Part shown: positions 8,942 to 62,237 of the stretch, piece after piece
How positions within the stretch are numbered: position 1 is the stretch's first letter
Layout of the letters: each line of letters opens with the position of its first letter
Source of the DNA: Psammoneis japonica
Taxonomy: Eukaryota
NCBI GenBank assembly: GCA_008632985.1
Contig: QPGO01000098.1
Location: 62,001 to 126,000 of the forward strand
DNA length: 64,000 nt
Reading direction: 5' to 3'
Notes under the pieces: model-generated
The model's database searches: none
Told to the model about the DNA's origin: nothing
Seen by the model: the letters and a program-made list of their open reading frames with translations, nothing else
Made by a program: the position numbers and the translations under genes

Positions 8942-10975
8942 ATGGTTTTGATTTCAACCAATGGCTGGCTTGAAATCAAAGTTGCAAAGCAGGTTGCAGA
9001 GGAAGCATGTGGGATTCTACCTGGGACACAGGTCCTGTCTGTAGAATGTGCTGCTGACAATCAGCACAAGGTGCTCAAAGCCAGCAAAATGGCAACGAGT
9101 TGTCTCACTGACTCATGCTCAGTTGAAATTGTGAGCTAAAACTGATTTAAAAGTGATTCTCTTGTTTTGTGATCCAAGACATCTTGGATGATGCCGCGTC
9201 AGAAAATGGACATTCTTTGAACATCATTCATGTAGAATGTGTGCTGAGGGTCACGGTGGAGGTTCGACACTTGCATTGAAACTTTCTGATGTCTGACTCA
9301 GCCGTGTAGAAATTCTAAGATGATTGGACATCTCTGAATGTCCACAGTCTTTCTAAAATGTCACACCATCCGCTTTCTGGTCTCAGGCAATTTGTCCTCT
9401 TGACTTGTCCGTGCAACGCCCTGTAGAATGTCATGAGCCTCCATGATGATGTGAGATTGGAGTTGAAGCTCCAAGACATGATTGTGACATCCAATGAGGC
9501 ACAGGCCATTGGTCTTGCCATGTCTCTTGCAAAATGGAAGTCACAAAGTCCACCAATGTCTCTTCACTGTGGGCACGCAAATCTTCCATGGAGTCTGGTG
9601 TGACCAACTTTTCCAAGGAAGCTCGCAATGTTTTCAGAAGGGGTTTGAGCAGGTTCTCACAACAGAAATCAGAGGTGATGGTGAATGTTGGGTTGCCCAT
9701 TGTTCGGGTGGCCAATGCCACCCCAATGTGAACTGACACAGTCAGGTGGTCACCAACATCAATGGTTTCTTGCAAGAGATCCTTGAAACTCAAGTCCTCC
9801 TTGATCCTGTGTCTTGGTCCAGACATTTCCTCCCACCAGCCAATTTGTTCGCCACAAGATGCAGATTCTTGGCATTGCACAAGACGTTGAATGTTGATGT
9901 TGGACCGGCTCCCATGCCAAAACCTTTGGCACCTTGCCAGTGGAAAAAACTCATGTCGTTCGGTTTCCTCTGCTGGATCTGGCAGCATGTTCATTGTGCA
10001 ATTTACAAGTCCCGTGTGATGCAGAGGCTGACTCTTGGGAAAACAAAGGTCGTTGAAGCTGCGCTTGAGCAAACTCATCGCCAGCTCAAGCTCTCCCTCC
10101 TCAAAGGGGGAATGTGCATGGACATCCTCCAGCGTGCGCTTCACATCCGCCTGTCAGTCCAACAGCATCCACCATTTTCCCCTTGTGCACAAAATCAGAG
10201 ATGTTGAGCCCAGTCATTTTTTTGTGCCAATGGGCATGATGCCTGTGAGCCAAATTTTTGCACTGGACACCTGCTCCAGGAGAACCTTGACAGAACGGAA
10301 GAATGAAAAATGCTTTGCAAAGCGTGGCTTGATCTGGAATTGGACACTTTCACAGAGCTTCTCCCCGTGATGCAGAATCAATTGCAATGAGCCATCACGA
10401 ACAGGCTGATCACACTTGTCAACAAGAATTGACAGACGCCCTTTGTCATGTTGCACTGTGGTGCCCAAAGCACGAACCATTGTTGAAACAGATTGGTCTT
10501 TGATTTTCACCCCTTGGGAAAATGTTTGAAGTTTTCATTGAGTCGCTTGTTGTTCTCTAAAAGAAAAACCACTTTCTCCTTGATGCAACATTCAGTTTCA
10601 TGGTCCAGTGTTTTGCAGCATTGAACTTGTTTTTCTTCCTCTTTGTTCTCTTCACAATTGGAAAAGCAAATGGCGCCAAAGTCAATCCGGAGGATGCACC
10701 ACTGGTTTTGATCTTTCTCGCCAATGGAATGACTCAGATCCGTGTCCACGTTGGATTCCTTGTTGATGGAGAACAACTCGTCTGCAAGCAAAAACAGTGT
10801 GGTTTTCCCAAGTTGCATGGGACGAGCAAAACAGATGGCACTTTCCACAGCGTGGAACAGTTCTTCTAGAAACAAACTGTTGTCGCGACAGCTGCAGAAC
10901 TTTCGGCACACATTGGCAGCACCATTCTGATGGCATCCAGGGAAATGGAAGCCGGTTTGTTTGCTTCTCTTTGAT

Positions 10976-11018
10976 GCCCTTTCCAAGGGATTACACACTA
11001 AAGTCCCTTGCCCTTTCC
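10976..11018. mobile_element. 25-bp insertion with 6-bp terminal inverted repeat and 9-bp target duplication
   Basis: gccctttcc + aagggattacacactaaagtccctt + gccctttcc; the paralog has a single gccctttcc at 61922-61930. Confidence 0.8.
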
Positions 11019-11063
11019 GTATTCGATGATTTGGAAGGTCTAGAGAGCTAGTTGCTTGACGTT

Positions 11064-11269
11064 TGGGGGAAGACTCCAGCCAGCCACTGGCTGAAAAAAG
11101 TCTGCTGTCAGTGCGTTTGGGGGTTTTGCCAGTAGAATTTTTACGTACACAGAATACGACGAGTCTGTCCAGCGTTCACCAAAACCCCCTAACGCACAGA
11201 TTGACAGATTCGTTCAGTGCAAATTCTGCACAAGATTCTTCAGCCAGCAGCTGGCTGAGACTTCCCCCA
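11064..11269. mobile_element. Foldback MITE, copy 1 (4-bp TSD cgtt)
   Basis: Ends tgggggaagactccagccagc / gctggctgagacttccccca, flanked by cgtt on both sides. The empty site gacgttgctcat is present in the paralog at 61966-61977. Confidence 0.92.
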
Positions 11270-11814
11270 CGTTGCTCATGGTGGTGTTGGTGTGGAGTGC
11301 AGTACGACCATGCGAATAAGGGAATGTTTTTTTCATGCGTGCACGACGTTCGAATGAGATCTGGCGCCGTGATCATGTTTTCGTAAGTGAGACGCAGTCA
11401 TCTCAGAGAGCATTGTCTTACGAAATGGCCTCAGCATGTCATCTTAGCGTGTGATATCCAGATCACTTAGCACTTCTTAGTGCCTGCAGTGTGAAGCGAC
11501 AAACCAGCACCGTCTTCCCACCACCGAGGACGCCTGGAGCTGACATTTGCGAAGATGGGGTGCGCAAGCCCCTGAGGCATTGATGAGCAGCTCTGACTTG
11601 AATGTTGCATGCATTGATTTTAAATTGTTTGTGAAAGAAAAATATCATGCAAACTCTCATCGCGAATAGAATCCTGGGTTTGCCAGCTGCCAATGAGACA
11701 ATCGACTTTGGCATGGTGTGACAGTCTGCAACCAGAGGAAGGTTCAAAGGGGTTGAAGCCACTCCTAATTTGTGGGGTTGACGAGTTTTCATGTACAAAG
11801 GTTATGGACACCAT

Positions 11815-13227
11815 TTAAGTGTTATCAGCACCATTCCCCCTCATGAAAGGAACAATATGATTGGCAGCAAATGTTCGTACAATTTCATACTGCTCGGCTT
11901 CATCCACCATGTCAAGTAAATCAAGCTCATCTGCAACATCGTCATTGTAGTGCGGAGCTAGTAATCGCAGAGCATTTGCCGCTTCCTTGGCATAATTTCC
12001 ATCTGAGCTCACCTTTCCCTGACTTGTCGGCAATTCTCTTCGATTCGTTGACGACTTCTCTCCACCGTCCCAATTTGAGTGTCGCGATGCTCCGCGGTTG
12101 CCTCCACATGCTTCGGTATCCCCGTCCTGATTCGGGGAACTATCATTATCACTCATGTCGTCGGGTGTCTTGTCGGGACCGGTTCGAGAGCGTTTTGGCC
12201 GTGGCGCCTGGGAAAGTTTTAGAAGGAGAGCCTGAAAGGAGAGCCTGTCGGAGAGTGTGGAAGGAAGCGTTAATGGTGTGATACTTGTGGACTCGACCGC
12301 CAGGATGTTCTCTAGGATATATTTCGAGGCTGCCGCGGCCATGCTACCCTCTTGCACGAGCTTGAAAAGTGCAACACCCCCGGGGGCATCGTCACAATCG
12401 GCGAACCAGTAAAATGTCCAGGACGACTCTAGGTCTGTCAAAATAGATACGATTCCACGCATTTGGTTGAGAAACGCCGCCGCGAAGTGCTCGGCAATGA
12501 CTTGTGGACTGTGATCTTTGTTCGCAAGGTTTCTCGGTTTTTTCAGCTCCATCTGAGCATCAAACGAATTTCGGATAGTCTTGTGTTTCACGTCCTCTAA
12601 TGTCGTAATGACCACATCAGTTGTTCCTTTAATTCGTCTCGTGTCGGAATCCAACCCCCGAATTTCGACGTCTAAGAGACCCCGGATCGGCTGCACGTCC
12701 GCAAAAAGATAGTCGCCCGGTAACCGCATATTTTCCTTTAGATACTTCATGTAAGTGGTACGGTTCTCATAAGAATCTTCTGGGCTGCTATTCCACTGAA
12801 AAACGGGGCAATCGGGAAATGTCGACGGCATGGTGGGCCAACTCGCTGACTTCTCGGGCATATCCAAAAACATGCTCAACAAAGCCCGCTTGGATCTGAC
12901 CGTAGCATCCGAAAGAACAATGGTTTTACTCTTTGCTGCGTAATCTAAAGCCATGCTGACTAGCGCCGCCGTTTCCTCTTTGGTAAACAGCGCCGGGGGC
13001 GGCGGTGGTGGCTGCTGCTGCTGCGGCGGCGGCGCTTGCGGTGGTCCTAGTGTGTACTTGCCACCCGGTACAAGGGTTGCGAACCCCCTGACTTGATACC
13101 CCTCCTCGTCAATCAAACACTTGACACCTTCTTGGTCGAGCAATGTGTTGAGCTCCGCGTCAGTACTGAGTCGCACACGACCAACATCTTGTACGGTTAT
13201 TCCAACAGTTTTGGTAGCCATGGCCAT
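11815..13227 (-). CDS. Crinkler (CRN)-like protein: short N-terminal header, P/Q linker, restriction-endonuclease-fold domain
   Basis: Uninterrupted ORF of about 470 aa with normal Tyr and TpA content. Motif pattern KGTTDVVI...MELKK...QVIAE...SILTDL..W fits a PD-(D/E)XK fold. Family call is from memory of motifs. Confidence 0.7.
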   Translation of the reverse strand: MAMATKTVGITVQDVGRVRLSTDAELNTLLDQEGVKCLIDEEGYQVRGFATLVPGGKYTLGPPQAPPPQQQQPPPPPPALFTKEETAALVSMALDYAAKSKTIVLSDATVRSKRALLSMFLDMPEKSASWPTMPSTFPDCPVFQWNSSPEDSYENRTTYMKYLKENMRLPGDYLFADVQPIRGLLDVEIRGLDSDTRRIKGTTDVVITTLEDVKHKTIRNSFDAQMELKKPRNLANKDHSPQVIAEHFAAAFLNQMRGIVSILTDLESSWTFYWFADCDDAPGGVALFKLVQEGSMAAAASKYILENILAVESTSITPLTLPSTLSDRLSFQALLLKLSQAPRPKRSRTGPDKTPDDMSDNDSSPNQDGDTEACGGNRGASRHSNWDGGEKSSTNRRELPTSQGKVSSDGNYAKEAANALRLLAPHYNDDVADELDLLDMVDEAEQYEIVRTFAANHIVPFMRGNGADNT

Positions 13228-13886
13228 TGTGGTTACAAGTTCGTACCACAACAACTACTGTATGTAGAGATGATGTTTGAGATGTTTTCGATCGTACGGT
13301 AAGGAAGTGGTTCAGCCCAAGAAAAGGAAGAAGATAAGGAAAAATCTTTGTACTAAGATTCAGGTAGTATCCTACGTAGATTATGACGTCAGCTGTGGCG
13401 CTGCGCGTGTTTTCTGCGCGATGCCATGAGCGAAAAAGCACACGGAACGAACTCGTCGTGCGTGATGAGCCGTTGTCGACGATGGTCAATGCGGGTGTGG
13501 ATAGCCAGAGAAAGCACAAGGCGCTCCTTATTGACAACTGCATCTGTTGAAAGTCTCTTCTCCCATCTTGAGCTTGTTGTGGACTCGATTGGAAAGAACA
13601 TGCTGGAAGACAACATGGAAGCATGTTGTCTCTTTGGACCCAAGATTGTGGTGCCCAACGGCGTCTGCCTCGCTCGTTGAATGCAGCATGTTGAAGTGCA
13701 TTGGTTCTACTAGGGACAAGTCATCGACTGCCAGAGTAGATGAAAGGATCATGTTAGTTGCAACTACGTGGCAAATCACGATGATTAGATTTTTCCTTGT
13801 CTGGTTTCCTTGTCTTTCCTCATCCAAGGAAATTTGGGGTCGAATGAGGAATTCCCTGCGATCGAAAAACCTGTGCATGTGCTGTC

Positions 13887-14133
13887 CCTCCTTGCACCCA
13901 AGTTTAGATGGAGATGGACTGACTCAAACCAACCCCGCTCGATGACTGTGACCCCTTGCTTGACCCGCATTGGAAGTGGGGTGCTTCCGACTCAAGATGA
14001 CTCGGTCTGGTCTTCTGACTGTGACCGGTCAAACTTTGGTTTTCTTTTCTCTCACTTTTCCAGCTTTGTCGGAACAGGAACCCTGATCAATGTGACTGGA
14101 TCACTCAAGCTTGGAAAAGCATTCTTCTTTTTA
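13887..14133 (+). repeat. Split direct repeat A1
   Basis: Near-identical to 22304-22550. Confidence 0.95.
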
Positions 14134-14322
14134 GTCTCTCTCATCATGTTGGATTTCTTCGCCTCGGGTGTCTCTGATGATGCGTTCGTCGATTTGGCTC
14201 GTCAGCTCGAGACTGATGTCATCTTGCCGTTCTCGTTGAGCTCTCCTGCAGCTGCCTCTCCTCAGGCTCACCCCTCTGGGGCTGCATGACAGGGGGGTCA
14301 CAAGGGCTTAAATCCCCAAGGC

Positions 14323-16602
14323 TTGAGCGAGGACATTTCGGGGGGTCATGGTCATCACCAATCGGACATTGACAGGGCGGAGTTGGGGGAAGTCATTTCC
14401 CACCCTCCAGGAACTCACGTTTTGGAGAGAGACGCGTCCCGCCCATTTCAGAGGGAAGCTCGCTCCTCTCGGGCAGGCTTCTTTGGGCGGGATTTGGCGG
14501 GTGATGGTCGGAGCATGCTTGAGATGGAGGGGGAAGGTGCGTCTTCTTCGTCCTCGCATGTGTCTCGTTGTCGGATCACCTGGCTGGAGACGACTGGCGC
14601 ACCCCGATGCTTGGGAATCAAGGGTGGGGGGGCCACCTTCTGCCTCAAAAAGGCAAGCGACTGCAACGTGAAGCACAAGGGTGGAAGTGTGGACATCCCG
14701 GCCATGGGGATGGTGGTTGTCCTCAAGTCACCGGATGCGGGGTTTTGCCAGCCCATTCTAGACGGAGGAAGCATGTCAGGCGAGGTGTCAGCAATGTGGG
14801 AATCGGAGTCGGATGCCCCAGCCGGTTGGAGGCAAAAGTTCTTGGTGCTGTCCAATGGCGAACCCTTCTTCACCGAGGACGAGGTTGAACCAGCCCTGCA
14901 GGAGCATGAAAGGGCAGCCGTCTTCAAGACGCCGGCTCGCAAGGAATGGCCGGAACCTGCCCCCCTTCACGAACACACCGTGTTGGAGGGGTTCATCCCA
15001 CATGAAAACAGATTCTGTCTGCACCTGCGCAGTTCCTGGCGGCAAACAAGAGCCTGTCTGCTTTAGCCCGGGTTGTGCAATCTGCCAAGGTGGTTTGCGG
15101 CAAGTCGGAGAGGCACTGGCCGGACCAGGTGACAAGGCCGGAAAGCGATCCAATGCCATGGAGTCCATGCTTGACATTCTCAGCCGCAAATTGGATCAAC
15201 TCGATGCATCCCTCGGCACTCTGACGCAGAGCTTTGATGAATCCCTCCTGGCTCCCACCTCTGGGGTGCCTTGGCAAACGTTGCATGTCGTGAATCAGGA
15301 GTCCAGTCCACGGACCTTGTGGACCGCATCACGGAAGTGGAAACGGGTTGGAGAAGCCAATCCAACCACCTCGTAAGAACGTTCAACAACAGGCTCCAAG
15401 GGATGCAAGACCGGTTGGGATCTATGGCGAGCCGCGCTGACCTGGAAACCTTGAAGAGAAACATGCTCCAGGTCTGCACGCAGCTGACCTCAAAGGTGAG
15501 ATCGTTGGAGTCACATGGAGCTGCGGGGTTCTCACCGCCAGGTGCTGCCCATGATCAAGGCTCCGTGGACGCACGCCTCACTCGACTGGATCGATCAGCA
15601 AGTGAGCTACGTGCAAAGTCAGACAAATCAGCGATCATGTTTTCGGGGGCAGGCGCATCGTCTTACGAGGATTGCCAGGCTTGGATGACGCAACACTTCC
15701 CGTCGCGGGCTTGTGGATGTTTGACCGACATTGTCCTCCTCTTGGATCGGATCAAAGGAATCGAGCCAATGGCACTGCACCATTTTCTATCCCAGTGGAC
15801 AAAGCGAATGAGTGTGAACATCGAAACCGAGGAAGATGCGCGAACCCTGGCGGGCTTCCAATGTCGCACGCCTCGAATCCTTGACTCGGGATCTGTGAAG
15901 TCGACCCAGACCTTGGGATTGCATCCCTCATGCTTGGACAGGGTCGAGACCCACGAACACTGGTCATCAGGGAATGTGGGAACGAAGCACTTCATCGAGG
16001 GGAAGATCGCCACGGTGGAGAATGATGTCATGGAGGACATCAATCAGCGCATCAGACCGGGAACATTCGAGAGCCAGGTGGTGCAGGATGCGTTGTCGAA
16101 ATCGGTGGCCTTTCTGCGGGCGCTGGCACAGTTCATGGACTCGACTTGTGCATCACTCACCAACCTGAGCAAGTTCTCCAAGAAGAAAGCGTGGTCCTTG
16201 ACCACCAAATTAACTCACCGCATCTTCTGGGACATCCACAAGGTGCGCTCCGGGGTTTTTACCTCCATTTCAGGCACGGACCCAGACGCAGTGTGCAGCA
16301 AGATTTTGTGGGCGGTGTTTCGGACCCAGGACATCATGGCGGAGCACACGTCGCTGGGCTTTGCCGATCATCCCTCAATGGCATCGGAGTGTGTCAAGTT
16401 TCTTGCGACAAACTCAGGTTTCGAGGTGGCAACGGATTTGCAATCCTCTGTCCTGACGCTGACCGAGAAAGCCAAAAACGCCAGCTCAGAGGCCAAATCA
16501 GCCCAGGCGCGAGGGGATGCTGCTCACGTTGAGCTTGGAAAATTGTGGACGGAGATTAAAGACCTGACTTGTTGGCTCAAGGCTCTGGAGAACAAGAAGT
16601 GA
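14323..16602 (+). pseudogene. gag-like ORF1 of the YR retrotransposon (frameshifted)
   Basis: Consecutive ORF pieces 14323-15066 and 15271-16602, with a Cys/His cluster (CLG..FCLKK..CNVKH) and predicted coiled coils; position upstream of RT. Confidence 0.65.
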
Positions 16603-17477
16603 AGCTCACGGGGAATGGAGGATCTGCGGGAGCAGCAGGTCTCGATTGGCAGGCCGACTGACCTGGGGCATGTCATGCGAGGCCAAAAAGCCTTCTCTTT
16701 TCAGGGAGCTTGTTTGATTCTCACCTCCGGTCCCCCAATCTGGCTTTTGTCCATGAGACCAAGGGAATGGCCCACTGTCTGCTGCTGCTGCGACGACACT
16801 GCCAGCTCCCACTGGAGCCCCCCATTGGCAGAGTTGTTCCAGAGTCAGTTGGACGCCTCCTTGGCACGTGTCTCGTGGTCAAGTGTGGAACAACTGGCTG
16901 AGCAGGTTGATGTTGTTCTCATGTCGGGGCACCCTCGTTCCTTGAATCTGCGGCACACATGATGCGGTCGGCGCCCTTGATTGTGATCCCTGTGGGAGCA
17001 GTTTCCAGGTGCAGCCTCCTCAGACTGCACCAGTTGCAGCGGCGGGACTTGACACACGTGGTGGTGGGCGGTGTTGCGTCTTTTCGGACTGCGCTGTTCT
17101 GGCGGGGGGTTCCTGCACCGGCCCTCAACGGAGGCCTGCGGCGCTCTGTTGGGCACATCATTGATTGTAAGCTCCCTGGGTCGCCATCGCCTCAACACCC
17201 TCGTGGTGATTTTCACAAGGAGGGTGACCTTCTCAACCCACAGTTTTTGAACCGACCAGTCGTTTGCTCATCTCATCGGTCGTTGACAGGTTGGGTCACC
17301 CGCACACTCTCGGTGGATGAGATGCTGGTGGCCTGGGATTTCCCTCTGCATTTCCAAATGTCCCAGGTACATCGGGCTTTTGAGCGGGGTTTTTCACTTG
17401 TCCCATTGAATCTCCTCACCCTTTTTGTGGAGGCGTTTGTTGAGGGCACTCCCCGGGATTTGCCATGACCTGGGGGT

Positions 17478-20250
17478 GTGGACCATGGGGACACGGTGGT
17501 CAAGGTTCCACTTCTCGGGGCTGGGACTTGGCCACCAGGTCTTTGGCGGCATTTGCCGCACACATGGATTGACGCATCTCTCATGACGGCGAAAGCCGCC
17601 AAGGACGATGCAGCGGTGCCTCCTTTCCGGTTGTGGGACAAGCGGATGACCCTGCTTTTCCTGGGCTTTGGCAAGGTTTTACCTGCCCTTCAGGACTTGG
17701 CACACCAATGGTGGCGGCGGAGGACTCTTCGGTCCTTTCGAGCACATCTGCGTTGGGAACATGGGTCGACGTGGGTCGCCATGCTGGCGATGCAATGCCG
17801 GCGTTTTGGGGACGCTACCGGGCATCTTCGGGGGGGGTTTGTCGCCACCCTCCACTCCCGTCCTTGGTGCTCGATGCACACCTTGGGGCGGAGGCGTTGA
17901 CACAAGCATTGGGCAGCTCCTGGTGGAATTGGGACCGAGGTTCTTCCCTTTTATTTTGGCGATGGCCCACTCCGGAACAGCGAGTTGGGGCTCGGGATGG
18001 GATCCGGATGTTTGTCAAAGGTCCCCTCCCTCGCAATTGCCGATGGCAGCGCATCCGGGGGTCCGAGCATGAGATTCTCAGGATGGCGGACAAAATTAGA
18101 AAGGTCCAAGACCAAGGTGCATCCATCGTGGAAGGGTGATTAGCTCAACCGACCATTTCTGGGTCCCAAAAACCGTCCGGGTGGAACCCCAGAATGGTCG
18201 TCTGGTGGAAATCGTCGAGGACGTATGAATGGTTTATGATGGGACCTCTTCCAGGTTAAATGATGCCCTCTGGGCACCCTCTTTTTCTTGCCCACTCCCG
18301 CGTCGGTTCTGGGGTGCATGACCCGCTCTGCTTTTTCGGTGGACCTCGATCTGGGTGATGTGTTTTTGAACTTTTTCATGGATCCCAACATTCGACCACA
18401 TGCGGGGATGACTTAACCCCACTCAAGCCATGTCTCCCATCGCAGGAGTCGATCTCGGCAGGCCCGCTCTGGTTTGAGCGATGGAACCGTTTGTTTGTGG
18501 GCATGCGGCCCAGCCCCTGCTTGGCGGTGCGGGCATTCCATTGGGCCGATGAGATTGCCAGAGGTGATCCGAACCGAGTCTCCAACATCATGGGATGCGA
18601 CAGGCTGCTCCCAAACTTGCCGGGTGACCCAAATTTCCAGATGGAGAAACCGTTTGTCATGAAGTGGAATTCGCGTCGCAAGGAAATTGCTGGCGACATC
18701 AAAACCTTTGTGGATGACTTGCAGGGAATGGGGGCTAGCGAGGAATCCGCGTGGCAAGTTGCTCACCAAATGGCCTCGTGCTTGCAGCATCTTGGTCTGC
18801 AGAATGCTGCTCGAAAGGCACGCCCTCCTTCTCAGATAGAAACCGGAGCTTGGGCTGGCACCATTTTCCGAGTTGTCAACAGGATGTCACCCAGTCGGCA
18901 TCTCAGGCCAAATGGGGAAAGCCAAGGGCATCATCGCCGAACTGCTTAGTTTTTACGCCAAGCAGCCGGAGGGCTTTCTTCCCACTTTTGACTTCAAGGA
19001 TCTGGAGGGAAAGCGGGGGTTTCTAGTCCACCTTGCTGTGACTTGCTCTTTTCCAATGCCATTCCTAAAAGGGATCCATCTGACCCTTGACTCCTGGCGC
19101 CCAAATTGGAAGAAGGATGGTTGGGCGATGACGGCCAAAGAGTTTGCAAGTTGGGTTCACCACCTCGCTGAGAAGCAGGGCCTTGACCCGGCAGAGGTTG
19201 CTGAGGGGCTGAGGGATCAACCGCCCCCTCCGCAGGTCATGGCGGTCCCTCGTCTTTTCATGGACTTGACAGCCATGGCCGCATTGCGGAGTCGCCGACC
19301 CCTGCTGCGGTCATCATCAGGTCCTCGAAAATCGTCACCATCCTCCATGGCTTTGGTGATGCATCTGGAAAAGGCCTTGGCACCTCCTTGGAAGCAGCAG
19401 ACGGAACAATTGCATTTCGGATCGGTGTGTGGGGCGATGATGAACTGGGGAACTCATCCAACTGGAAAGAGTCATCCAATGCGGTGGATGCCATCCAAGA
19501 ACTTGGAGAGCAGGGAGAATTGACCGGCGCGTGTTTGTTCTTTTTTACGGACAACTTGGTTGCCGAAATGGCTTGGTGCAAGGGCACCTCTTCCAGCCCT
19601 CTTCTGCTTGAGCAGGTTGTCCGGTTGAAAACTTTGGAGGCTGAGCATGGGATTGGCCACATCTCATGCATGTCTCGGGGGGGCGGATGACAGCACAGGG
19701 TGCAGACGGAGTCTCTGGGGGAGTGTTGTCCGAGGGAGTCATGAACGGAGCCAAGATGCTGTCATTTGTCCCTCTCCATCTTAGAGCCACAGCATGGTCG
19801 GCCACTCTCTTCACGTGGGTTCAATCTTGGGCTGGAGCCCCTCCTCCGGAACTGCTGACCCCCTTGGATTGGTGTCAGAAGGGTCACGACATTGTGGGGT
19901 GGAATTGCCCAGCTTGCGAAGCAATCGAAATGCCCCATTTCAATGCGGGCACTTGGGTCTGGGCCCCACCTCCAGCCGCTGCGAGAGCGGCTCTGGAAGA
20001 GCTCCGGATCGCAAGGATCAAGCACCAGACATGTTTCGCATGTTCATCTGCCCACGTCTAATGACACCGGAGTGGCAGAAGCAGTTGCACAAGGCAGCGG
20101 ATCTTGTGTTCACCATCCCGGCTGGATCAAGGCCTTTCTGGCCAGGTGACATGTTCAAGCCCTTGCCAATTGGCCTCTTTTTCCATTTGTTTCCTGCAGC
20201 CCTTGGCAGCTTTGGGGAACCCCAAAAATGCATGCTGTGGACCGGTCCTT
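17478..20250 (+). pseudogene. RT and RNase H of the YR retrotransposon (frameshifted)
   Basis: VDLDLGDVFLNF, GMRPSP, KTFVDDL, WAGTIF (RT); GFGDASGKGLG, FFFTDNLVAE, AQGADGVS (RNase H). Confidence 0.85.
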
Positions 20251-20599
20251 GCGGCGAGTGTGGCCGGATGCTGCGGTGGACGAAAGGAACATTCTGCGCA
20301 AATTTTGTGCACAATGCAGGAATCTGGCCGGCATGTCAGAGAGCATGGTGTCCAGGGTGTTGCACTTCAAAAGAAAGCATGACTTTCCATCCAGGGGGGA
20401 CTCTGGTGGACGACCCTCAAAACGATGATGCGCAAACACACGGGGGGGGACCGCCCAAGGCTGGACGACAATGCGTGGCACCGGAAGCCGCAGGACAAAA
20501 ACAAGTTCGTGCGGGCGCGAGCAGGGATCATCTCATGGTGGCGTTTGAGTGTGACACCTGTGCATTTCACAAGCTGCACCAGAGGGAACCTTTGCCTCA

Positions 20600-21743
20600 T
20601 CACCTGAGATGAGGTTGCTCCAGCGTGCATTCGGCGGGTGATCTTGGATGCGTTTTGGAGCAGGGAGTCGACAACGGTCGAAGCAAATGCATCGAGAGTT
20701 GGAAGAGGCCTCGTCTTGTCTGAACGTCTGGGCCTGACAGGGCCTCACCTCGAGCCAGGTCCTCTCCCGTCCTGTGATCACTGTGGGCATGAGGTCGCCA
20801 TGCAGATGTCTTGGCTTCGACGGCTGCAGGAAAACACTCTGAATCGTACACTCAGTTTGATGCGATTCGAAAATCATGCGGCTCACTCCAATCAGGTGCG
20901 CGCCTCGGCGCAGGCCAATTCACGTGCTCCAGCATTGGGGGACTTGGAAGGGAAACAGCATCTGCGGATGTGCGAAGACCCGTGTGCCTCACTGTGGTTC
21001 CAACGTTTTATGACCGGATGCAAAAGAGGATGGGCCAAGATTGGAGGCCCGACAGAGCGATGTTGGTTGATGTCATGCAACATCTGTTGCCTCGGGTCGA
21101 GGAGAAGGCTCTTCGAGCCCCAGGGGAGGTGGACAGATTTGTGCACCTTGCACGTGGATTGCACTTTGTGGCTGGCTGCGTCTTGTCTCTTCGAGGTCCC
21201 GAAGGTCTTCTTGTGGACTTGGGGGCTCTTGTCAAACATCTGCCAAGACATGCAGAGCATGTTGTGGCAGAGTCAAGGGAGAGCATGGGGAGCGGCAGCA
21301 CCCCCAGTGTCAACGTCACCAGCTCAGGTGTCAACCTTCAGTTTTGGGTAGAAATGGCAGTCTCGCTGCACTGGGGCCGTCGGCGAACACGTGGACCAGT
21401 GATGTCGAATGTGGACGGAGAGGTCTTATCCACTGAAGAGCTCAACGCTTTCTTGCATGAAGTTTTGGGAGACATCTATGATGACCACCCAAGCCTGTTT
21501 GCAGCTGACATCACTTCGGTTGCTGACACACAGGACAAGTGTGATGTGAGTCATTCGTTCAGGAGGGGTTCGGACTCGCGTGCCATTGCTCAAAAGGTGT
21601 CGGAAGATGACATTGACATCGTCAACTGGTGGAAGAAGAAGGAAAGATCGGGTGCGGCACGACCTGCACATAAAATGCGCCAACACCACGCCGATGTCAC
21701 CCTTCTTTTACCCTCATTCCTACGTCATGCCAAGGCCATGTGA
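20600..21743 (+). pseudogene. Tyrosine recombinase of the YR retrotransposon
   Basis: SLRGPEG (Arg), HSFRRGS (HxxR), W, and MRQHHA where the catalytic Tyr is expected. Confidence 0.85.
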
Positions 21744-21855
21744 TTCGGGCGGTCGCAAGCCCTTGGAAACGTCAGGTCCCCGGAGAGCAGTCTTCCAGCT
21801 TCCTGCTCTCTGGATCTTTATGTTTGGTGGCCACTGCCCAGGATTCTCATCGGGG

Positions 21856-22306
21856 GGATTAGAGCTCGACCCGCCTCATTCGGCCTCGGGAGTCGACAAG
21901 ACGAGGTCTGGGATTGCTGCGCAGCACAACACCTTCGACGGCTTCGGTTTTCGTGCGGGAAAACCTTGTCTGGCGTGTCTTCGTTCGAGACGGTCGTTTG
22001 CTCTCTAGTTCGCACCCAACGTCGCAAAATGCCGAAGGGTGCGACACTAGAGTTTGGCTCTCGAAAATGCCCGAGGTGTTGGTGCTCCGTGGATTTTCCG
22101 GAAGAGCCCCTGTGCTGGCACAGGACCCTGTGGAGGTTTGGGTTTCTCCCATCCCCCCGTGTACGGAGCAGAGCTCATGCCGAAAGCTCTGCTCTGTGAG
22201 TCTCCTGAGTGTCACAAGGTTTTTCATTGCTTCTTGGTGGTTCTTGATTGGGATCATTCGAGATCTAGTCCGAAGCGGCGGTTTGCTGAGTCGACACTCG
22301 GATCCT
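21856..22306 (+). repeat. Split direct repeat B1
   Basis: Aligns with 22568-23017. Confidence 0.95.
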
Positions 22307-22550
22307 CCTCGCACCCAAGTTTAGATGGAGACGGACTGACTCAAGCCAACCCCGCTCGATGACTGTGACCCCTCGCTTGATCCGCATTGGAAGTGGGGCA
22401 CTTCCGACTCAAGATGACTCGGTCCAGTCTTCTGACTGTGACCGGTCAACCTTTGGTTTTCTTTTCTCTCACTTTTCCAGCTTTGTCGGAACAGGAACCC
22501 TGATCAACGTGACTGGATCACTCAAGCTTGGAAAAGCATTCTTCTTTTTA
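22304..22550 (+). repeat. Split direct repeat A2
   Basis: Aligns with 13887-14133. Confidence 0.95.
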
Positions 22551-22567
22551 CCCACCCACCACACCCT

Positions 22568-23017
22568 GGATTGGAGCTTGACCCGCCTTGTTCGGCCTTG
22601 GAGTCAACAAGACGAGGTCTGGGATCACTGCGCAGCACAACACCTTCGACGGCTTTGGTTTTCGCAGGGGAAAACCTTGTCTGGCGTGTCTTCGTTCGAG
22701 ACGGTCGTTTACTCTCTAGTTCGTACCCAACGTCGCGAAATGCCGAAGGGTGCGACACTAGAGTTTGGCTCTCGAAAACGTCGAGGTGTCAGTGCTCCGT
22801 GGATTTTCCGGAAGAGCCCCTGCACTGGTGCAGGACCCTGTGGAGGGTTTGGGTTTCTCCCATCCCCCCTTGTGCAGAGCAGAGCTCACATCAAAAGCTC
22901 TGCTCTGTGAGTCTCCTGAGTGTTGTGAGGTTTTTCGTTACTTCTCAGTGGTTCTTGATTAGGATCATTCGAGATCTAGTCCGAAGCGGCGGTTTGCTGA
23001 GTCGACACTCGGATCCT
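22568..23017 (+). repeat. Split direct repeat B2
   Basis: Aligns with 21856-22306. Confidence 0.95.
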
Positions 23018-28049: not shown

Positions 28050-29990
28050 TGGGAGTCCCCAAGTGCAAGTGAGTGGACAAGATCAACCCATGGGAATGGG
28101 TGGAAGAAGATGGAAATGATGCCTCAGCAGTGCCCATGAAAGCACCGTCAGGCAGTCAATGGTGTGAGCTTGTTGACATCCAAAAATGATCAGATCTTCA
28201 TGGTTTGATGGGATCGCCCATGAACACATCCCATCCTTGGACCGTTGGCCGTCAAGATTGAGCAGACTAAAGAATGGGTTGAGGTCCACCCAGCAAATTT
28301 GAAGTGACGCAATTGCACTCCTGATGATCCAGGAGTCTGCTGCCAATTTCTTCATCAAACTGCCGATGGCCAAAATGAGTTTCAATTGGGCTCAGTGGTG
28401 GACTCTGACAAAGAGGCAAAACGATTTGAAGAGATGCAAAAAAACAGAGCAAAAAGATCAGAGAAGACCAAGAGGAAAAGATTCAAGATCAAAGAGCATT
28501 GGCAGAAGCAATTCAATTGATGGAGGTGAATTTGGGTGACTGCAACTTGTGCGTGAATGGAAGCAACCCAGATCATTTCTTGGGATTTTTTTCTTGATGA
28601 GACGGATCCCTTACAGTGAATCTTTCCAGCGGTTGATCTGGCTGCTGGACTTGGAGTGCAAACAACCCGCCAGCTCTTTGATTTCAAGAACCGCTCTGTC
28701 GCGCAACAGTTGAGTGGATTGCTGTTGATCCAGACATTTTGGGCACCAAATCTGGGTTCACATGTTTGAAGAATGAAGCAAAGACGAGGGAGCCTTTGTT
28801 TTGGGATGAAAAGACAGATGCTTCTGTTTTTTGAAATGATGCAGTTCAGCTCAAAGGCTTGTCAACTGAACAGTTGAATGACAGGTGTGCCAAATTTTTT
28901 TGTCATCAAGACCCGATGGATCCAGAAAGATGTGGTGCACAGTTGCTCAGCAAAGAGCTGCATCTCAAGAAGAAGAAAATGAGTGTCAAACGTCAAAATC
29001 TGTTTGAAGCCCCCTGTGCTCCCACGGAACGTAAAGCCTTGCTGGCAATGTCCAGTGACAAAATGCAGAACTTTTTCAGTGCTGACCTTTGTAGATGTGC
29101 ATTGGACATGGATGTCAATTGATCGGAAATGTGGTCCAGCCTGGGGCATTGGTTTGGAAAATGTGCTTTGGTCACCTGGGTGCTGCTGGCTTGTGGTCAT
29201 TCCTCACAATCTGGATGGAAGCAGTCACTGGAACTTGCGTGCCACCTCCTTGACTTTGGAGGTTGTTTTGTTCAACTCAATGAATGGCATTTATCTGAAG
29301 GAAATGGATGTGGGAACTGGACGGGAATGGAAGCTTTTGTTTGTCAGAAAGGAGTGACCATGATCATTGAAGACAGCAAGCAATTGCATGACAAGTGGAA
29401 AGGATTGGAAGTCTTTCTCTGGAGAAAAGTGAAGCCCGGGTGCAATCGGAAGGAGGTTTGTGACAAGATTGCTGAGAAACTAAAGGAAGAATTGACATTG
29501 AGGAAATTTTGAGAGAAATGAAGTCCTTGGGGAAGAGCTGATGAATGATCCATGGATGTTCCCGCATTGTCTCATTTCACTTGTAGTTGACCGCAACCAG
29601 TGCTGCAAAGCACAATGGAGATGAGTGTTTTTGGCACCAATGAAAGACAACTGCATTTGCATGAACAATGATTGCCTTCATGCAATGTGTCCAGCGTTGT
29701 CCACATGTCATCTGTGGAAAAAGATCTTTGCTGAAGCCTTGCCAAAAATTGCCACAATTAAATGACAATCGCCCCCTTGACAGCCCTGAGCTGCTGAGAC
29801 ATCACCTGCACCGCTGGATCCCGCAACAACAATGGGCAATCCCAAGGGACTTGATGGAGTGCTGAGTCCCCAGTTTGCCAGCCAGTTTTTGAGTGAAACA
29901 AGTGGAGCACAAAGCGGATTCTGGTGAAAGGATTCACTTCCAAACTGCCACAGCACACACCAAGCACACAGGAGGAACAGAAGTGGAAAT
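28050..29990 (+). repeat. Old duplicated segment, copy 1 (relic of an unknown gene)
   Basis: Colinear matches to 33390-35310, e.g. atggtgtgagcttgttgac, atccagacattttgg, gaatgaagcaaagac, gtcattcctcacaatctgg. Confidence 0.8.
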
Positions 29991-54300: not shown

Positions 54301-54399
54301 TGCACTGGGGGTGTGGGTTAGCTTGTTGCCGGAGTTGCGGGGTGGAAGCGCAGCAGCACTTTAAAGATGGAATTTTGGTTTTGTTTTGACTTTGCTTGT

Positions 54400-60067: not shown

Positions 60068-61977
60068 TTAGTTGTCCTGACGCAGTTTTTTCACAACATA
60101 AGCGGCACCGTTGTCGTACATTACAATGACAAATCCCGCGACAGCCCTGCCCTTTCCCGCGTCCTCCATCGCCTGCCGTGTTTTAACATATCCTGCTAAC
60201 TGCTCTTGAGCTTTTGATACGAAATCGGCAGTAGGAGGCGTCTGAGACGCAACTTGTTTCAGTTCCAGTATCACTACACTGGTGTCGGAGCTAAATGTGA
60301 CATCCGTCCGCTTTCCGGTCTCGGGCAATTTGTCCTCTTGACTTGTCCGTGCAACGCCCTGTAGAATGTCATGAGCCTCCGTGATGACGTGAGATTGGAG
60401 TTGAAGCTCCAAGATATGATTATTGACATCCGATGAGGCCCAGGCCATTAGTCTTGCCATGTTCTTATGCGAAATAGAAGTCACAAAGTCCACCAATATC
60501 TCTTCACCGTGGGCATACAAATCTTCCGTGGAGTCTAGTGCGACCAACTTTTCCAAGGAAGCTCGTAACGTTTTCAGAAGGGGTTTGAGCAGGTTCTCAC
60601 GATAGAAATCAGAGGTGATGGCGAATTTGGGTTGTCCATTGTTCCAGTGGCCGATGCCACCCCAATGTGAACTAATATAGTCAGGTAGTCACCAACATCG
60701 ATGGTTTCTTTCAAGAGATCCTCCAAACTCAAGTCCGCCTTGATCTTGTATCTCGGTCCAGATATTTCCTCCCTATCAGCCAATTTGTTCGCCACAAGAC
60801 GTAGATTCTTGGCATTGCACAAGACGTTGAATATCCATGTCGGAACCGGCTCCCGCGCCAAACCCTTTGGCACCTTACCAGTGGATAAAAACTCACGTCG
60901 TTCGGTTTCCTCTGCTGGATCCAGCAGCATATTCATTATGCCATTTACAAGTCCCGTGTGATACAGAGGCTGACTCTTAGGAAAACGAAGGTTATTGAAG
61001 TTGCGCTTGAGCGAACTCATCGCCAGCTCAAGCTCTCCCTCCTTAAAGGGGGAATGTGCGTGGACATCCTCCAGCATGCGCTTCACGTCCGCCTCTCTCA
61101 GTCCAACAGCATCCGCCATTTTCCCCTTGTACGTAAAATCGGAGATGTTAAGCCCACTCATTCCTTTTATACCAATGGGCGTGATGCCTGTGAGCCAAAT
61201 TTTTGCACTGGATACCTGCTCCAGGAGAACCTTGACAGAACGGAAGAATGAAAAATACTTTGCAAAGTATGACTTGATCTGGAATTGGACACTTTCGTAG
61301 AGCTTCTCCCCGTGATGCGGAATCAATTGCAATAAGCCGTCACGAACAGGCTGATCATACTCGTCAACAAGAATTAATAGACGCCCTTTATCATGTTGCA
61401 CTGCGGTGCCCAAAGCACGAACCATCGCCGAAATAGATTGGTCTTTGATTTTCACCCCTTGGGAAAACGTTTTGAAGTTTTCGTTGAGTTGCTTATTGTT
61501 CTCTAAGAGAAAAATTACTTTCTCCTTGATGCAACATTCGGTTTCATAGTCCAGCATTTTGCAGCGTTGAACCCATTCTTCTTCCTCTTCGTTCTCTTCA
61601 TAATTGGAAAAGCAAACGGCGCCAAAGTCAATCCGGAGGACGTACCACTGGTTTCGATCGTCCTCGCCAACGGAATAACTCAGATCCGTGTCCACGTTGG
61701 ATTCCTTGTTGATGGAGAACAATTCGTCCGCAAGCGAAAACAGTGTGGTTTTCCCAAGTTGCATGGGACGAGTAAAACAGATAGCACTTTCCGTAGCGTG
61801 GAACAGTTCTTCTAGAAACAAACTGTTGTCGCGATAGCCGCAGAACTTTCGGTACACATTGGCAGCACCATTCTGATGGCGTCCAGGGAAATGGAAGCCG
61901 GTTTGTTTGCTTCTCTTTGACGCCCTTTCCGTATTCGACGATTCGGAAGGTCTAGCTAGTTGCTTGACGTTGCTCAT
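60068..61977 (-). CDS. AAA-ATPase-like plus C-terminal PD-(D/E)XK nuclease protein, with a single frameshift near 60630
   Basis: RPMQLGKTT (Walker A variant), ILVDEYDQP (Walker B), WLTGITP; RTDVTF..VILELKQ..KAQEQLAGY in 60068-60556. The paralog at about 9690 has one extra base that joins the two ORFs. Confidence 0.8.
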
Positions 61978-62024
61978 GGTGGTGTTGGTGTGAGTACGAC
62001 GAATGTATTCAGAGGGTCCAAAGA

Positions 62025-62237
62025 TGGGGGAAGTCTCCAGCCAGCGCTGCTGGCTGAAAAAAGTCTGCTCGTCAGTGCGTTTGGGGGTTTTGCAAGTATG
62101 ACAATTTTTACGTATGCAAAAGAAGACGAGTCTGTCCAGCGTTCACCAAAACCCCCTAACGCACAGATTGACAGACTCATTCAGTGCAATTTCTACACAA
62201 AATTCTTCAGCCAGCAGCTGGCTGGAGACTTCCCCCA
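62025..62237. mobile_element. Foldback MITE, copy 2 (4-bp TSD aaga)
   Basis: Perfect 21-bp TIR tgggggaagtctccagccagc / gctggctggagacttccccca, aaga on both flanks, and an internal inverted repeat tgcgtttgggggttttg / caaaaccccctaacgca. Confidence 0.92.

Follow-up and report, generated by a model that had tools for sequence, protein, structure and literature searches.

How do two copies of a repeat that belong to one and the same retrotransposon come to lose different TpA dinucleotides? The locus considered here lies in a 64,000-nucleotide stretch of apparently diatom-derived DNA (hereafter, the window), and a first-pass annotation, having noticed TA in one repeat copy where the other has TG or CA, proposed that the mutations arose in situ on chromosomal DNA and on both strands, as opposed to single-strand editing of an RNA or cDNA intermediate. 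Our analysis makes it quite probable that the locus is a dead copy of a DIRS-order retrotransposon that was inserted with A1 equal to A2 and B1 equal to B2, and then decayed through two context-specific transition processes within a repeat-rich domain.

The element occupies positions 13887-23017 of the window and is a degraded DIRS-order retrotransposon, with a tyrosine recombinase and split direct repeats in the order A1..B1-A2-B2. All the features described for it lie on the + strand. The 5' terminal repeat A1 (13887..14133) is 95.5% identical to A2 over 247 nt; the A unit proper begins at about 13889, and the 'CC' at 13887-88 also fits the end of B. At the other end, the internal copy of the 3' repeat, B1 (21856..22306), is followed by the internal copy of A, A2 (22307..22550, with the aligned part at 22304-22550), a 17-nt spacer (22551-22567) and the 3' terminal repeat B2 (22568..23017). 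This is the layout of split direct repeats as defined for DIRS-order elements by Szitenberg et al. (2014, PMC4157794), in that the internal repeats B1 and A2 lie downstream of the recombinase ORF, which ends at 21743. The ends of the element show no target-site duplication, and no second copy of it is present within the 64-kb window.

Between the repeats, two upstream open frames taken from the ORF list (14290-15066 and 15241-16602, together spanning 14290..16602) occupy the position of Gag in such elements; they produced zero Pfam matches at E 0.01. Next comes a degraded pol (16669..20413), delineated by tblastn with 28 long homologues and broken into at least 8 frame pieces, in which 'TFVDD' and 'FGDASGKGLG' are readable. 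By sequence, there is a single sub-threshold match to Pfam RVT_1 (E 2.5e-4). The predicted structure of one homologue, P0162 (pLDDT 83.9), which aligns with window positions 18288-20395 in tblastn, matches the reverse transcriptases of MoMLV, XMRV, CaMV and HIV at E 5.6e-9 and below (5.6e-9 for MoMLV; 550-590 columns for HIV-1), this fold being that of the relative and not of the broken copy in the window. Read on this relative, the predicted model points to a reverse transcriptase with RNase H in the element. After RNase H, the homologues share about 250 conserved residues (window 19660-20413) for which neither Pfam nor PDB sequence searches gave a match. DIRS1 and PAT have a methyltransferase domain, which Ngaro and Viper lack and which separates PAT from Ngaro.

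The recombinase ORF (20793..21743) is an open frame of 316 aa, with homology beginning near 20626 and 145 homologues at about 40% identity; in the protein database search, the best protein is 41% identical and there are no close paralogues. The ORF has no Pfam or PDB sequence match. Its predicted structure, modelled with 34 homologues, has a mean pLDDT of 64.5 with a confident core, and its top 15 Foldseek matches are all tyrosine recombinases, with a best E of only 2.6e-3; among its atlas neighbours, PF00589 is found in 13-86% of the members. These predictions indicate that the element probably carries a tyrosine recombinase instead of a DDE integrase. Across all the element frames and their intact homologues, Pfam found nothing except the sub-threshold RVT_1 match, and PDB sequence and profile searches with the element proteins returned nothing relevant. 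The copy is dead, with at least 8 frame breaks and 15 of 15 conserved tyrosines lost.

The alignment of B1 and B2 comprises 449 columns with 91.3% identity (90.7% counting gaps) and contains 39 substitutions, 36 of which are transitions. All six sites at which TA had been reported in one copy against TG or CA in the other were recovered. TA is retained in B2 at 22710, 22724, 22939 and 22960, where B1 has TG, CA, TG and TG, respectively, the coordinates first assigned to two of these sites (22710-11 and 22724-25) being exact; it is retained in B1 at 21860 and 22162, where B2 has TG. The site originally read as gtgTAc versus gtgCAg is a real difference but is not a TA/CA pair: it consists of TA/TG at 22162/22873 beside a separate CG/CA at 22164/22875, and the corrected tally is five TA/TG and one TA/CA. 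Taken alone, the six sites do not exceed the chance expectation because simulations often reach this number. When 36 transitions are scattered at random over B1 or B2, the mean number of such sites is 4.8-5.2, and at least six appear in 3470-4297 of 10000 simulations.

The overall context of the changes is far from random. Within YpR dinucleotides (TA, CG, TG, CA) lie 34 of the 36 transitions, compared to a simulated mean of 15 and a maximum of 26, with none of 20000 simulations reaching 34; only 5 of the B1/B2 substitutions fall outside decaying dinucleotide contexts. Ten doublets pair TG with CA (B1 positions 21877, 21915, 21954, 22080, 22113, 22119, 22178, 22213, 22215 and 22235), whereas the simulations gave 0.35 on average and never more than 4, with 0 of 10000 reaching ten; every other type of double-transition doublet occurs 0-1 times. 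CG in one copy is matched by TG or CA in the other at 8 sites of the B pair and 4 of the A pair. The differences between A1 and A2 comprise 4 TG(A1)/CG(A2) sites, 2 TG(A1)/CA(A2) doublets and 3 others. Neither the ten doublets nor the 8 CG-containing sites of B figured in the list of the first-pass annotation.

The comparison of B1 with B2 presupposes that split direct repeats start essentially identical. The replication scheme that makes them so is a literature model rather than an experiment on the family of this element. The premise itself holds for three intact relatives found on metagenome contigs, whose repeat pairs are identical at 843/843, 554/556 and 456/456 positions (99.6-100%), and the simplest reading is therefore that B1 and B2 diverged after the last copying; we infer that all of their differences post-date insertion. 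The repeats of these relatives have a TA o/e of 0.64-0.82, and for the closest loci taken in full the value is 0.48-0.57. Metagenome contigs scanned for an exact match to a conserved 22 nt of B contained none, and no RNA runs containing the element were listed.

The split repeats, conceived as an internal control, are a valid but weak instance of it, and a duplicated gene in the same window is the better control. A decayed copy of an AAA-ATPase_like gene (9356..11269, − strand) is 91.5% identical to an undecayed copy (60293..62237, − strand; pair range 88-92%) that has an open 522-aa frame (60577-62142), a TA o/e of about 0.5-0.7 and a match to Pfam PF09820 (E 1.2e-13). The homologues of this gene are 68-77% identical, and the named ones come from raphid pennate diatoms; on the strength of these relatives, two other candidate sources, a dinoflagellate with 5-hydroxymethyluracil and Bigelowiella natans itself, were set aside. 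The 60 TA of the normal copy correspond in the decayed copy to 9 TA, 26 TG, 21 CA, 3 CG and 1 other (51 of 60 lost), compared to only 1 TA that is private to the decayed copy; the 94 CG correspond to 39 CG, 26 TG, 27 CA and 2 others (55 lost). Over 1604 aligned bases, the spectrum consists of 28 A>G and 25 T>C changes at TpA, 27 G>A and 23 C>T changes at CpG, and 38 others, so that TpA accounts for 53 of the 66 changes of the A>G or T>C type, and the A>G changes comprise 28 at TpA, 5 at CpA and 1 elsewhere. The decay ends at about 10960, inside the homologous sequence, where a TA-normal island begins, and such a halt within homologous sequence indicates that the change was made in place.

This island (11001..13500), with TA o/e of 0.44-0.78 and normal CpG, adjoins the element on the left and contains an ORF (11818-13254) that has unnamed homologues only. 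Two further TA-normal islands lie at 55501-58000, where there is no long frame, and at 60001-62000. Outside the islands, over about 52 kb of the 64 kb, TA o/e is 0-0.3 on both sides of the retrotransposon, whatever the type or orientation of the elements there. CpG o/e drops to 0.0-0.14 at 30-41 kb, and TA is at its floor throughout the CpG o/e range from 0.9 to 0.0, which implies that TA loss is the faster process.

The conserved codons of the element allow the two losses to be compared within coding sequence. All 15 conserved Tyr codons are lost, 6 of them to His (CAY) and 3 to Cys (TGY). In the recombinase ORF, 0 of 8 conserved Tyr columns are kept (4 His, 2 Cys), including CAC at 21687 and CAT at 21726, and the conserved tyrosines near the recombinase C-terminus read His in the window copy; in pol, 0 of 7 are kept (2 His, 1 Cys). 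Most other conserved residue types in the recombinase and pol are kept at about 40-100% of the columns, and a CpG-type change to Q, W, C or H is seen in 9 of 53 conserved Arg columns. Loss of TA is thus far more complete than loss of CpG.

Taken together, the spectrum and polarity of the changes, their symmetry between strands, the domain boundaries and the near-identity of the relatives' repeats fit a simple model, and the original proposal of decay in place on the chromosome, after insertion and on both strands, is supported, mostly by the duplicated gene, the Tyr codons, the boundary and the intact relatives. Under this model, the element would have been inserted with A1 equal to A2 and B1 equal to B2, and the resident double-stranded DNA of the repeat-rich domain would be the substrate of two transition processes. 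One would be a very fast change of TpA to TpG or CpA, equivalent to A>G on either strand of the self-complementary TpA; the other, a slower change of CpG to TpG or CpA, would be ordinary decay of methylated cytosine. Both would finish at TG/CA and strike the repeat copies independently, yielding three kinds of sites: those at which one copy retains TA or CG, those at which the two copies have different products, and those with the same product, which are invisible. Because genes embedded in the domain are spared, targeting would depend on chromatin or domain state and not on sequence duplication. From about 80% TA loss against a background divergence of about 0.6% per copy in B, we estimate that TpA loss exceeds the background roughly 300-fold.

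The ancestry of the ten doublets bears on how much of B this model explains. Each TG/CA doublet is accounted for equally well by an ancestral CpG struck on a different strand in each copy, and the TpA process might accordingly have produced only the six single sites in B, with all ten doublets coming from deamination of methylated CpG. CpG decay is indeed active in both repeat pairs, with the 8 sites in B and 4 in A that pair CG with TG or CA, and an ancestral CG yields exactly this doublet; furthermore, if all ten doublets and an equal number of invisible sites had been TA, the starting TA o/e of B would exceed 1, above the values in the relatives. We nevertheless consider this derivation of the doublets unlikely. 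With 27 CpG shared and 8 single, the loss in B is about 13% per copy, which predicts some 0.3 doublets; no conserved Tyr is kept, as against CpG-type changes in 9 of 53 Arg columns; and TA in the window has already reached its floor where CpG o/e stands at 0.7-0.9. Arithmetic on the B1/B2 counts under a uniform rate gives about 1.5 TA-derived in addition to these 0.3 CpG-derived doublets, compared to the ten observed, and strong rate differences between sites must therefore be assumed. The surviving TAs are enriched in TTA and TAA contexts, and 0 of 31 in the ATA context are kept. Reconstructed base composition is indecisive: with the doublets taken as TA, B would have started at TA o/e 0.81 and CG o/e 1.08, and with the doublets taken as CG, at 0.47 and 1.19, the TA o/e of the relatives being 0.48-0.82. 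A TA ancestor for most of the doublets is what we infer. The same ambiguity affects the strand argument, since the unambiguous single sites within B split 5 TG to 1 CA, and the two-strand claim within B depends on one site and otherwise on doublets that possibly derive from CpG. Editing of a single-stranded RNA or cDNA intermediate by an ADAR- or deaminase-like enzyme, followed by integration, would produce such a bias, and B1 and B2, as separate segments of one intermediate, could be edited independently; the sense strand shows more TG than CA both in B1 (36:20) and in the element as a whole (792:684). However, there is no strong strand bias relative to the transcript. The Tyr codons of the element, with 6 CAY to 3 TGY, run contrary to the bias in B; in the duplicate, TG and CA number 26 and 21, and decay ends within homologous sequence; the mixed sequence flanking the element, about 52 kb that includes non-retroelement DNA, is equally depleted; and TG:CA ratios of 1.56 and 1.73 in TA-normal DNA are as skewed as that in B. 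We find editing of an intermediate very unlikely.

It could also be argued that the differences within the B1/B2 and A1/A2 pairs pre-date insertion, the repeats having been incompletely re-copied in each round or inherited from two different parents. The family is abundant and diverged, with 1073 contigs of a public DNA run aligning to the element at 80% or higher, 127 of which are at least 99% alike to the window; the homogenising step in DIRS-type elements is a proposed model; and lineage-specific states exist, as at 21874, where, among the variant positions listed, B1 and B2 are both unlike all 14 other contigs. The variant positions listed (40 of about 1900, weighted to sites where all contigs differ) mostly have TG or CA in the window and CG elsewhere, and they supplied no outgroup against which to polarise the B sites. 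Set against inheritance are the 99.6-100% identical repeat pairs of the intact relatives, the confinement of nearly all transitions to decaying contexts with 5 other substitutions, a spectrum that belongs to the decay of a dead copy and not to variation among working elements, and the death of the copy in other respects, through its frame breaks and the loss of all its conserved tyrosines. We regard inheritance as a distinctly improbable source of the differences. The direction of change might instead be the reverse, with TG and CA ancestral and TA newly created, for example, by RIP-like C>T changes at CpA; given how abundant TG and CA are, G>A or C>T changes striking them at random would give about the observed number of TA/TG and TA/CA sites. 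This scheme is hardly credible given that the region has a TA o/e of 0.1-0.3 with no excess of TA, that it is the open-frame duplicate that holds the TAs, with 1 private TA against 51 losses in the decayed copy, that His or Cys stands in place of conserved Tyr, and that TA o/e in the intact relatives is 0.5-0.8. Nor do we give any real credence to an artefact of sequencing or assembly, such as a miscalled modified base. Some platforms might, in principle, misread a modified T or A at TpA, and the sequence is found in one public run whose library type is not on record. However, contigs built independently from that run show the same sequence over stretches of the element, with 0-3 differences per ~500 bases, an agreement that is not fully independent because the run may be the assembly data of the window itself; sharp-edged TA-normal islands occur on the same scaffold, and frame breaks and CpG decay accompany the loss of TA.

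If decay in place by TpA and CpG transitions is the correct account, the chemistry of the TpA process can be approached by analogy. Our leading guess is a deaminase that acts on DNA adenine at 5'-TA, of the kind proposed for the chlorarachniophyte Bigelowiella natans, a suggestion that we put forward tentatively and would expect to fail somewhat more often than to succeed; the main alternative is a miscoding modified thymine or adenine at TpA. In a broader perspective, diatoms (stramenopiles) might share with a chlorarachniophyte (Rhizaria) a TpA-specific DNA-editing defence that would be aimed at silenced repeat chromatin rather than at viruses as such, would outpace methyl-CpG decay on double-stranded chromosomal DNA and would be the chief eraser of transposons, an idea to which we assign a probability only slightly short of even. 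If so, a second, distant group of marine algae would destroy transposons by converting TpA to TpG or CpA in place, and the process would be ancient and widespread among eukaryotes, a counterpart of fungal RIP that works by the opposite chemistry (A>G, not C>T). Nearly every TA, and hence every tyrosine codon and two of the three kinds of stop codon, would be gone before ordinary mutation reaches 1%, which would account for the long but spurious open frames of such genomes and for repeats in them that can no longer be recognised. The dating of insertions by repeat divergence would be distorted, given that B1 and B2 seem 9% diverged when the background is about 1%. The footprint, TA o/e <0.2 with CA+TG >1.4, could serve to map silenced domains in any assembly, and the enzyme, whether an adenine deaminase or a base-modifying system, would come within reach through comparison of the two lineages.

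Several known systems resemble this decay in part. Fungal RIP causes C>T changes mainly at CpA, so that TpA rises, consistent with the abstract of the RIPCAL paper; it hits both copies of a duplication. As in RIP, a flood of context-specific transitions kills repeated DNA and leaves a dinucleotide signature; unlike in RIP, TpA is destroyed here, and of two gene copies that are 88-92% identical, one has been spared. Editing by APOBEC or ADAR acts on one strand of RNA or cDNA and leaves a strand-biased signature limited to the retroelement. Deaminase-type hypermutation of retroelements is the common feature, whereas in the window both strands and non-retroelement DNA are affected. Methyl-CpG decay of transposable elements is the second process in the window, with the same TG/CA products and the same restriction to repeat DNA, but it is the slower one, and deamination of 5-methylcytosine cannot turn TA into TG or CA. 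ADAR is noted to prefer a 5' U in a preprint on B. natans (Mettrop et al., bioRxiv 10.64898/2026.01.13.699255), and methylation of diatom transposons by DNMT5a has been shown in Phaeodactylum (PMC9998398). As for the element itself, Ngaro, Viper and PAT-like DIRS elements have the same A1 - ORFs - B1-A2-B2 arrangement with RT/RNase H and a tyrosine recombinase, as described in PMC4157794 and PMC3266345 (Piednoel et al. 2011), and resemble this element, in which no target-site duplication is visible; the copy in the window differs in being dead and in having domains that Pfam models miss.

The closest parallel is B. natans itself. In mutation-accumulation lines of this species, two integrated viral regions received 231 of the 302 new mutations; with one exception these were A>G or T>C, and each A>G or T>C change among them was at TpA (bioRxiv 10.64898/2026.01.13.699255). 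The window, likewise, has its A>G and T>C changes concentrated at TpA, hit on both strands and confined regionally. The two systems further have in common that TpA>TpG and TpA>CpA are nearly exclusive, on either strand; that only foreign or repeat DNA is affected, ordinary genes keeping normal TA; and that TpA depletion and enrichment of CpA+TpG occur in clusters, with genes enriched for reverse-transcriptase or transposase domains (bioRxiv 10.64898/2026.01.13.699255). The rate excess is of similar order, 1000-fold as measured in the living lines of B. natans (bioRxiv 10.64898/2026.01.13.699255) against the roughly 300-fold estimated here from copy comparison. They differ in the host lineage, a diatom here and a chlorarachniophyte there; in the targets, which are retrotransposons and a pseudogene here and giant-virus inserts there, with CpG decay coupled to TpA loss in the window; and in extent, the loss being near saturation here (o/e 0-0.3 over about 52 of 64 kb) compared to 0.45 in the viral region of B. 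natans. Mutations were caught arising in B. natans and are inferred from copy comparison here. Our literature search for TpA-directed hypermutation in diatoms found no report. The signature of TpA loss is thus already known from B. natans (2026), and, judging from its sequence, the diatom-derived window looks like a second lineage in which the same signature has arisen.

The loss of TA from B1 (21856-22306, plus strand, delimited by repeat alignment) and B2 (22568-23017, plus strand, the 3' terminal repeat), two copies of one split direct repeat, is confirmed and extended by the present analysis. Aligned over 449 columns, the two copies differ by 39 substitutions, and all but three of these are transitions (36). 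All six sites at which the first-pass annotation had reported TA in one copy against TG or CA in the other are present, with TA retained in B2 at 22710, 22724, 22939 and 22960 and in B1 at 21860 and 22162; the sixth, however, had been read one base off as TA/CA and is really TA/TG, with a distinct CG/CA difference just after it, so that the corrected tally is five TA/TG and one TA/CA. By themselves, these six sites prove nothing: because TG and CA are very frequent here, 36 random transitions placed on B1 or B2 yield a mean of 4.8-5.2 such sites, and six or more appear in 35-43% of the simulations.

The context of the substitutions departs from chance far more clearly. Within TA, CG, TG or CA dinucleotides lie 34 of the 36 transitions, compared to a simulated mean of 15 and a maximum of 26 (20000 simulations). 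Beyond the sites already listed, the copies differ at eight sites with CG against TG or CA and at 10 doublets, that is, dinucleotide sites with TG in one copy and CA in the other; for such doublets, the simulated mean was 0.35 and the maximum 4 (10000 simulations), and other double-transition types occur 0-1 times each. Only five substitutions fall outside the four contexts, which puts the background divergence of B1 and B2 at about 1%. The other repeat pair, A1 (13887-14133, plus strand) and A2 (22304-22550, plus strand), contributes four CG/TG sites and two TG/CA doublets. Decay in this pair is one-sided in copy and strand, since A1 has TG at both doublets and also at all four CpG differences, where A2 has CG; the counts are too low to interpret. 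Separately, a tandem duplication unrelated to the element (43137-43306 and 43304-43469; about 170 nt, 91.6% identity) has a spectrum like that of B1/B2, in that all 14 substitutions are transitions, with three TA/TG sites, five CG/TG or CG/CA sites and three TG/CA doublets.

Repeats A and B belong to a dead tyrosine-recombinase retrotransposon of 9.1 kb (13887-23017, plus strand), in the 3' end of which the finding sits. A1 is followed by the internal region and A2 by a 17-nt spacer; the B/A junction reads GGATCC/TCCT between B1 and A2 and, conceptually, between B2 and A1, and no target-site duplication is visible at the element ends. A Pfam search of the element frames recognised none of them, and domains were therefore assigned via homologues and folds. 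The last open frame (20793-21743, plus strand) is assigned to a tyrosine recombinase in this way. It has 145 homologues that are about 40% identical, among them a protein of the diatom Fragilaria crotonensis. For its AlphaFold model, which drew on 34 homologues (mean pLDDT 64.5, confident in the core), each of the 15 highest-ranking Foldseek matches was a tyrosine recombinase, including MRSA integrase, lambda Int, XerH and Flp, the lowest E value being only 2.6e-3. The pol remnant (16669-20413, plus strand) matches pol proteins of 1100-1330 aa and aligns to these homologues only in at least eight pieces spread over three frames. The RT/RNase H fold was established on a relative, P0162, and not on the broken copy in the window: its model (pLDDT 83.9) resembles the reverse transcriptases of retroviruses and caulimoviruses (E 5.6e-9), and the alignment with HIV-1 RT extends over the RNase H domain too. 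Among related elements, the methyltransferase domain is the feature that separates PAT from Ngaro. The element has the same A1..B1-A2-B2 plan, with internal copies downstream of the recombinase, as the Ngaro, Viper and PAT-like members of the DIRS order (PMC4157794, PMC3266345), and in descriptions of split-direct-repeat elements A2 is identical to A1 and B2 to B1 (PMC4157794).

The premise that such repeats start essentially identical, on which the first-pass annotation relied, holds for working relatives. Among 74 metagenome loci encoding recombinase relatives, three combine an uninterrupted pol with a recognisable repeat pair (marine metagenome contigs; L032 2016-3737, L052 7691-9201, L024 149-604 and 9346-9801), and these pairs match at 843/843, 554/556 and 456/456 positions (99.6-100% identity). 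In L032, the 843-nt unit recurs at 879-nt spacing directly downstream of the recombinase, the arrangement that a B-A-B-A junction or a tandem or circular form should give. The terminal repeats of the intact relatives have an observed/expected (o/e) TA ratio of 0.64-0.82, and the whole loci of the closest relatives have TA of 0.48-0.57 and CG of about 1.0, in contrast to about 0.1 and 0.7, respectively, in the element of the window.

The B1/B2 pattern fits independent decay of two copies that were identical at the start. Such decay would leave sites with TA or CG surviving in one copy only, doublets where both copies lost the dinucleotide to different products, and invisible sites where both took the same product. 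A doublet is formally ambiguous, however, since deamination of an ancestral CG on opposite strands would look the same. In B, each copy has lost only about 13% of its CpG (27 sites shared, 8 single), so that about 0.3 CpG-derived doublets are predicted, which favours a TA origin, as does the near-complete loss of TA in the same element. Furthermore, TA is at its floor across the window while CpG o/e spans 0.9-0.0; TA loss is thus the faster process, and this too favours a TA origin for most doublets. Conversely, a uniform-rate model built on the TA sites (3 shared, 6 single) gives about 1.5 TA doublets against the 10 seen, so that a TA origin calls for rate differences from site to site, for which the contexts of surviving and lost TAs described below are evidence, and counting all 10 doublets and an equal number of invisible sites as TA would raise the starting TA density of B above that of the relatives. 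Taking into account both lines of evidence, we infer that most, perhaps not all, doublets had a TA ancestor.

A better polarised control than the B1/B2 pair is an AAA-ATPase_like gene pair found by self-comparison of the window. The intact copy (60293-62237, minus strand) lies in a TA-normal island and holds an uninterrupted reading frame of 522 aa (Pfam PF09820, E 1.2e-13), whereas the decayed copy (9356-11269, minus strand) lies within TA-depleted DNA. The best relatives of the intact frame in the database are 68-77% identical to it, and those with a name come from Cylindrotheca fusiformis, Bacillariaceae sp., Seminavis robusta and Attheya. With the Fragilaria protein in the recombinase family, this similarity makes a raphid pennate diatom the most likely source of the window. 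The decayed copy has lost 51 of the 60 TA and 55 of the 94 CG dinucleotides of its counterpart: the former now read 9 TA, 26 TG, 21 CA, 3 CG and 1 other, and the latter 39 CG, 26 TG, 27 CA and 2 CT. In the reverse direction, a single TA is private to the decayed copy. Across 1604 aligned bases of the decayed stretch, the spectrum consists of 28 A>G and 25 T>C changes at TpA, 27 G>A and 23 C>T changes at CpG, and 38 others; A>G off TpA is rare (5 at CpA, 1 elsewhere). The decay ends at about 10960, within homologous sequence and exactly at the island start, beyond which five TA are kept and 0-1 lost. Because the duplicate is polarised, it reveals two processes, TpA>TG/CA and CpG>TG/CA, acting on both strands of resident DNA in a bounded domain, with the other gene copy untouched. 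The TAs that survive in depleted DNA are over-represented in TTA/TAA and CTAG-like contexts and under-represented in ATA/TAT; in the duplicate, TA in ATA context was kept at 0/31 sites, compared to 4/23 for the remaining sites. When losses are assigned to the strand of the changed A, a 3' pyrimidine is favoured about 2:1 (37/62 versus 15/46 for a purine). This bias may represent a sequence preference of the TpA-destroying activity.

Polarity can also be read inside the element, at columns with at least 60% residue agreement among homologues. Conserved Tyr is kept at 0 of 8 such columns in the recombinase frame (4 His, 2 Cys, 1 Leu, 1 Ala) and at 0 of 7 in the pol remnants (2 His, 1 Cys, 1 Trp, 2 Phe, 1 Ala), whereas for most of the other conserved residue types retention is about 40-100% of columns, with the exception of Cys in the recombinase frame (0/3). 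Both TAY>CAY (n=6) and TAY>TGY (n=3) are found, so both products occur on the element's sense strand. Conserved Arg carries a CpG-type replacement (Q, W, C or H) at 9 of 53 columns, indicating that CpG loss is much lower than TA loss. The first-pass annotation had proposed mutation in place on both strands of chromosomal DNA, as opposed to single-strand editing of an RNA or cDNA intermediate. No strong strand bias relative to the transcript emerged: TG:CA is 26:21 in the duplicate and 792:684 over the whole element, the unambiguous sites in B (5 TG : 1 CA) are not significantly skewed, and the Tyr codons (6 CAY : 3 TGY) lean in the opposite sense to B. The proposal of in-place, two-strand decay is supported by the decay boundary and the near-even split in the duplicate, although the six sites from which it had been drawn are statistically weak.

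Across the window, o/e is 0.16 for TA, 0.60 for CG, 1.55 for CA and 1.52 for TG; about 52 kb lie at TA o/e of 0-0.3, and TA-normal islands occupy 11001-13500, 55501-58000 and 60001-62000. The stretch 30001-41000 (about 11 kb), with CpG of 0.00-0.14, TpA of 0.00-0.10 and CA+TG up to 1.8-2.0, presumably decayed earlier than any other part of the window. A diverged repeat pair (28159-29683 and 33505-34880, about 75% identity) contains 40 TG/CA doublets. Also TA-depleted are an ORF at 48963-50324 (plus strand) whose endonuclease/exonuclease/phosphatase domain (E 1.9e-6) is of the sort that LINE-type elements carry, and an inverted repeat pair (1433-3539 versus 50064-52162; about 2.1 kb, 65% identity); an open frame at 54056-54856 (minus strand), likewise in depleted DNA, has weak armadillo-repeat matches (E 4e-5, under the curated cut-off). 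Because TAA and TAG have nearly vanished from depleted DNA, long open frames abound there (55 of at least 180 aa in the 64 kb, both strands), and gene callers will over-predict proteins in such DNA. The window contains no second copy of the element. The element family is abundant, with 1073 contigs from a public DNA run. Contigs assembled independently differ from the window at 0-3 positions in about 500 bases; this speaks against an assembly artefact, although the window may itself derive from that run.

Taken together, these results define a TpA process that turns A into G at 5'-TA (T into C as read from the opposite strand), hits both strands of chromosomal DNA in bounded, repeat-rich domains and outpaces methyl-CpG decay. 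The second process is accounted for by the CpG methylation established for diatom transposons (PMC9998398). Targeting of TpA loss would follow silenced chromatin. A DNA adenine deaminase is a tentative candidate for the chemistry, to which we would assign somewhat less than half of the weight, the rest being divided between a modified base at TpA that miscodes and some mechanism that has yet to be thought of. Because one copy of a duplicate can be spared, the process is unlike RIP, which has a homology trigger. Full-text literature searches and a term check of one further preprint turned up no report of TpA decay in diatoms. A preprint on Bigelowiella natans already describes a process of this kind (bioRxiv 10.64898/2026.01.13.699255): of 302 new mutations in mutation-accumulation lines, two integrated viral regions received 231, which with a single exception were A>G or T>C changes lying at TpA, at a rate about 1000x background and in some lines only. 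In the same source, 124 genomic clusters carry the TpA-low, CpA+TpG-high footprint, TpA-depleted coding sequences are enriched in reverse-transcriptase and transposase domains, and the authors propose an ADAT2-like adenine deaminase working on DNA. The window thus presents a new instance of a kind of genome defence described only in 2026; it belongs to another major lineage, and the intensity here is saturating.
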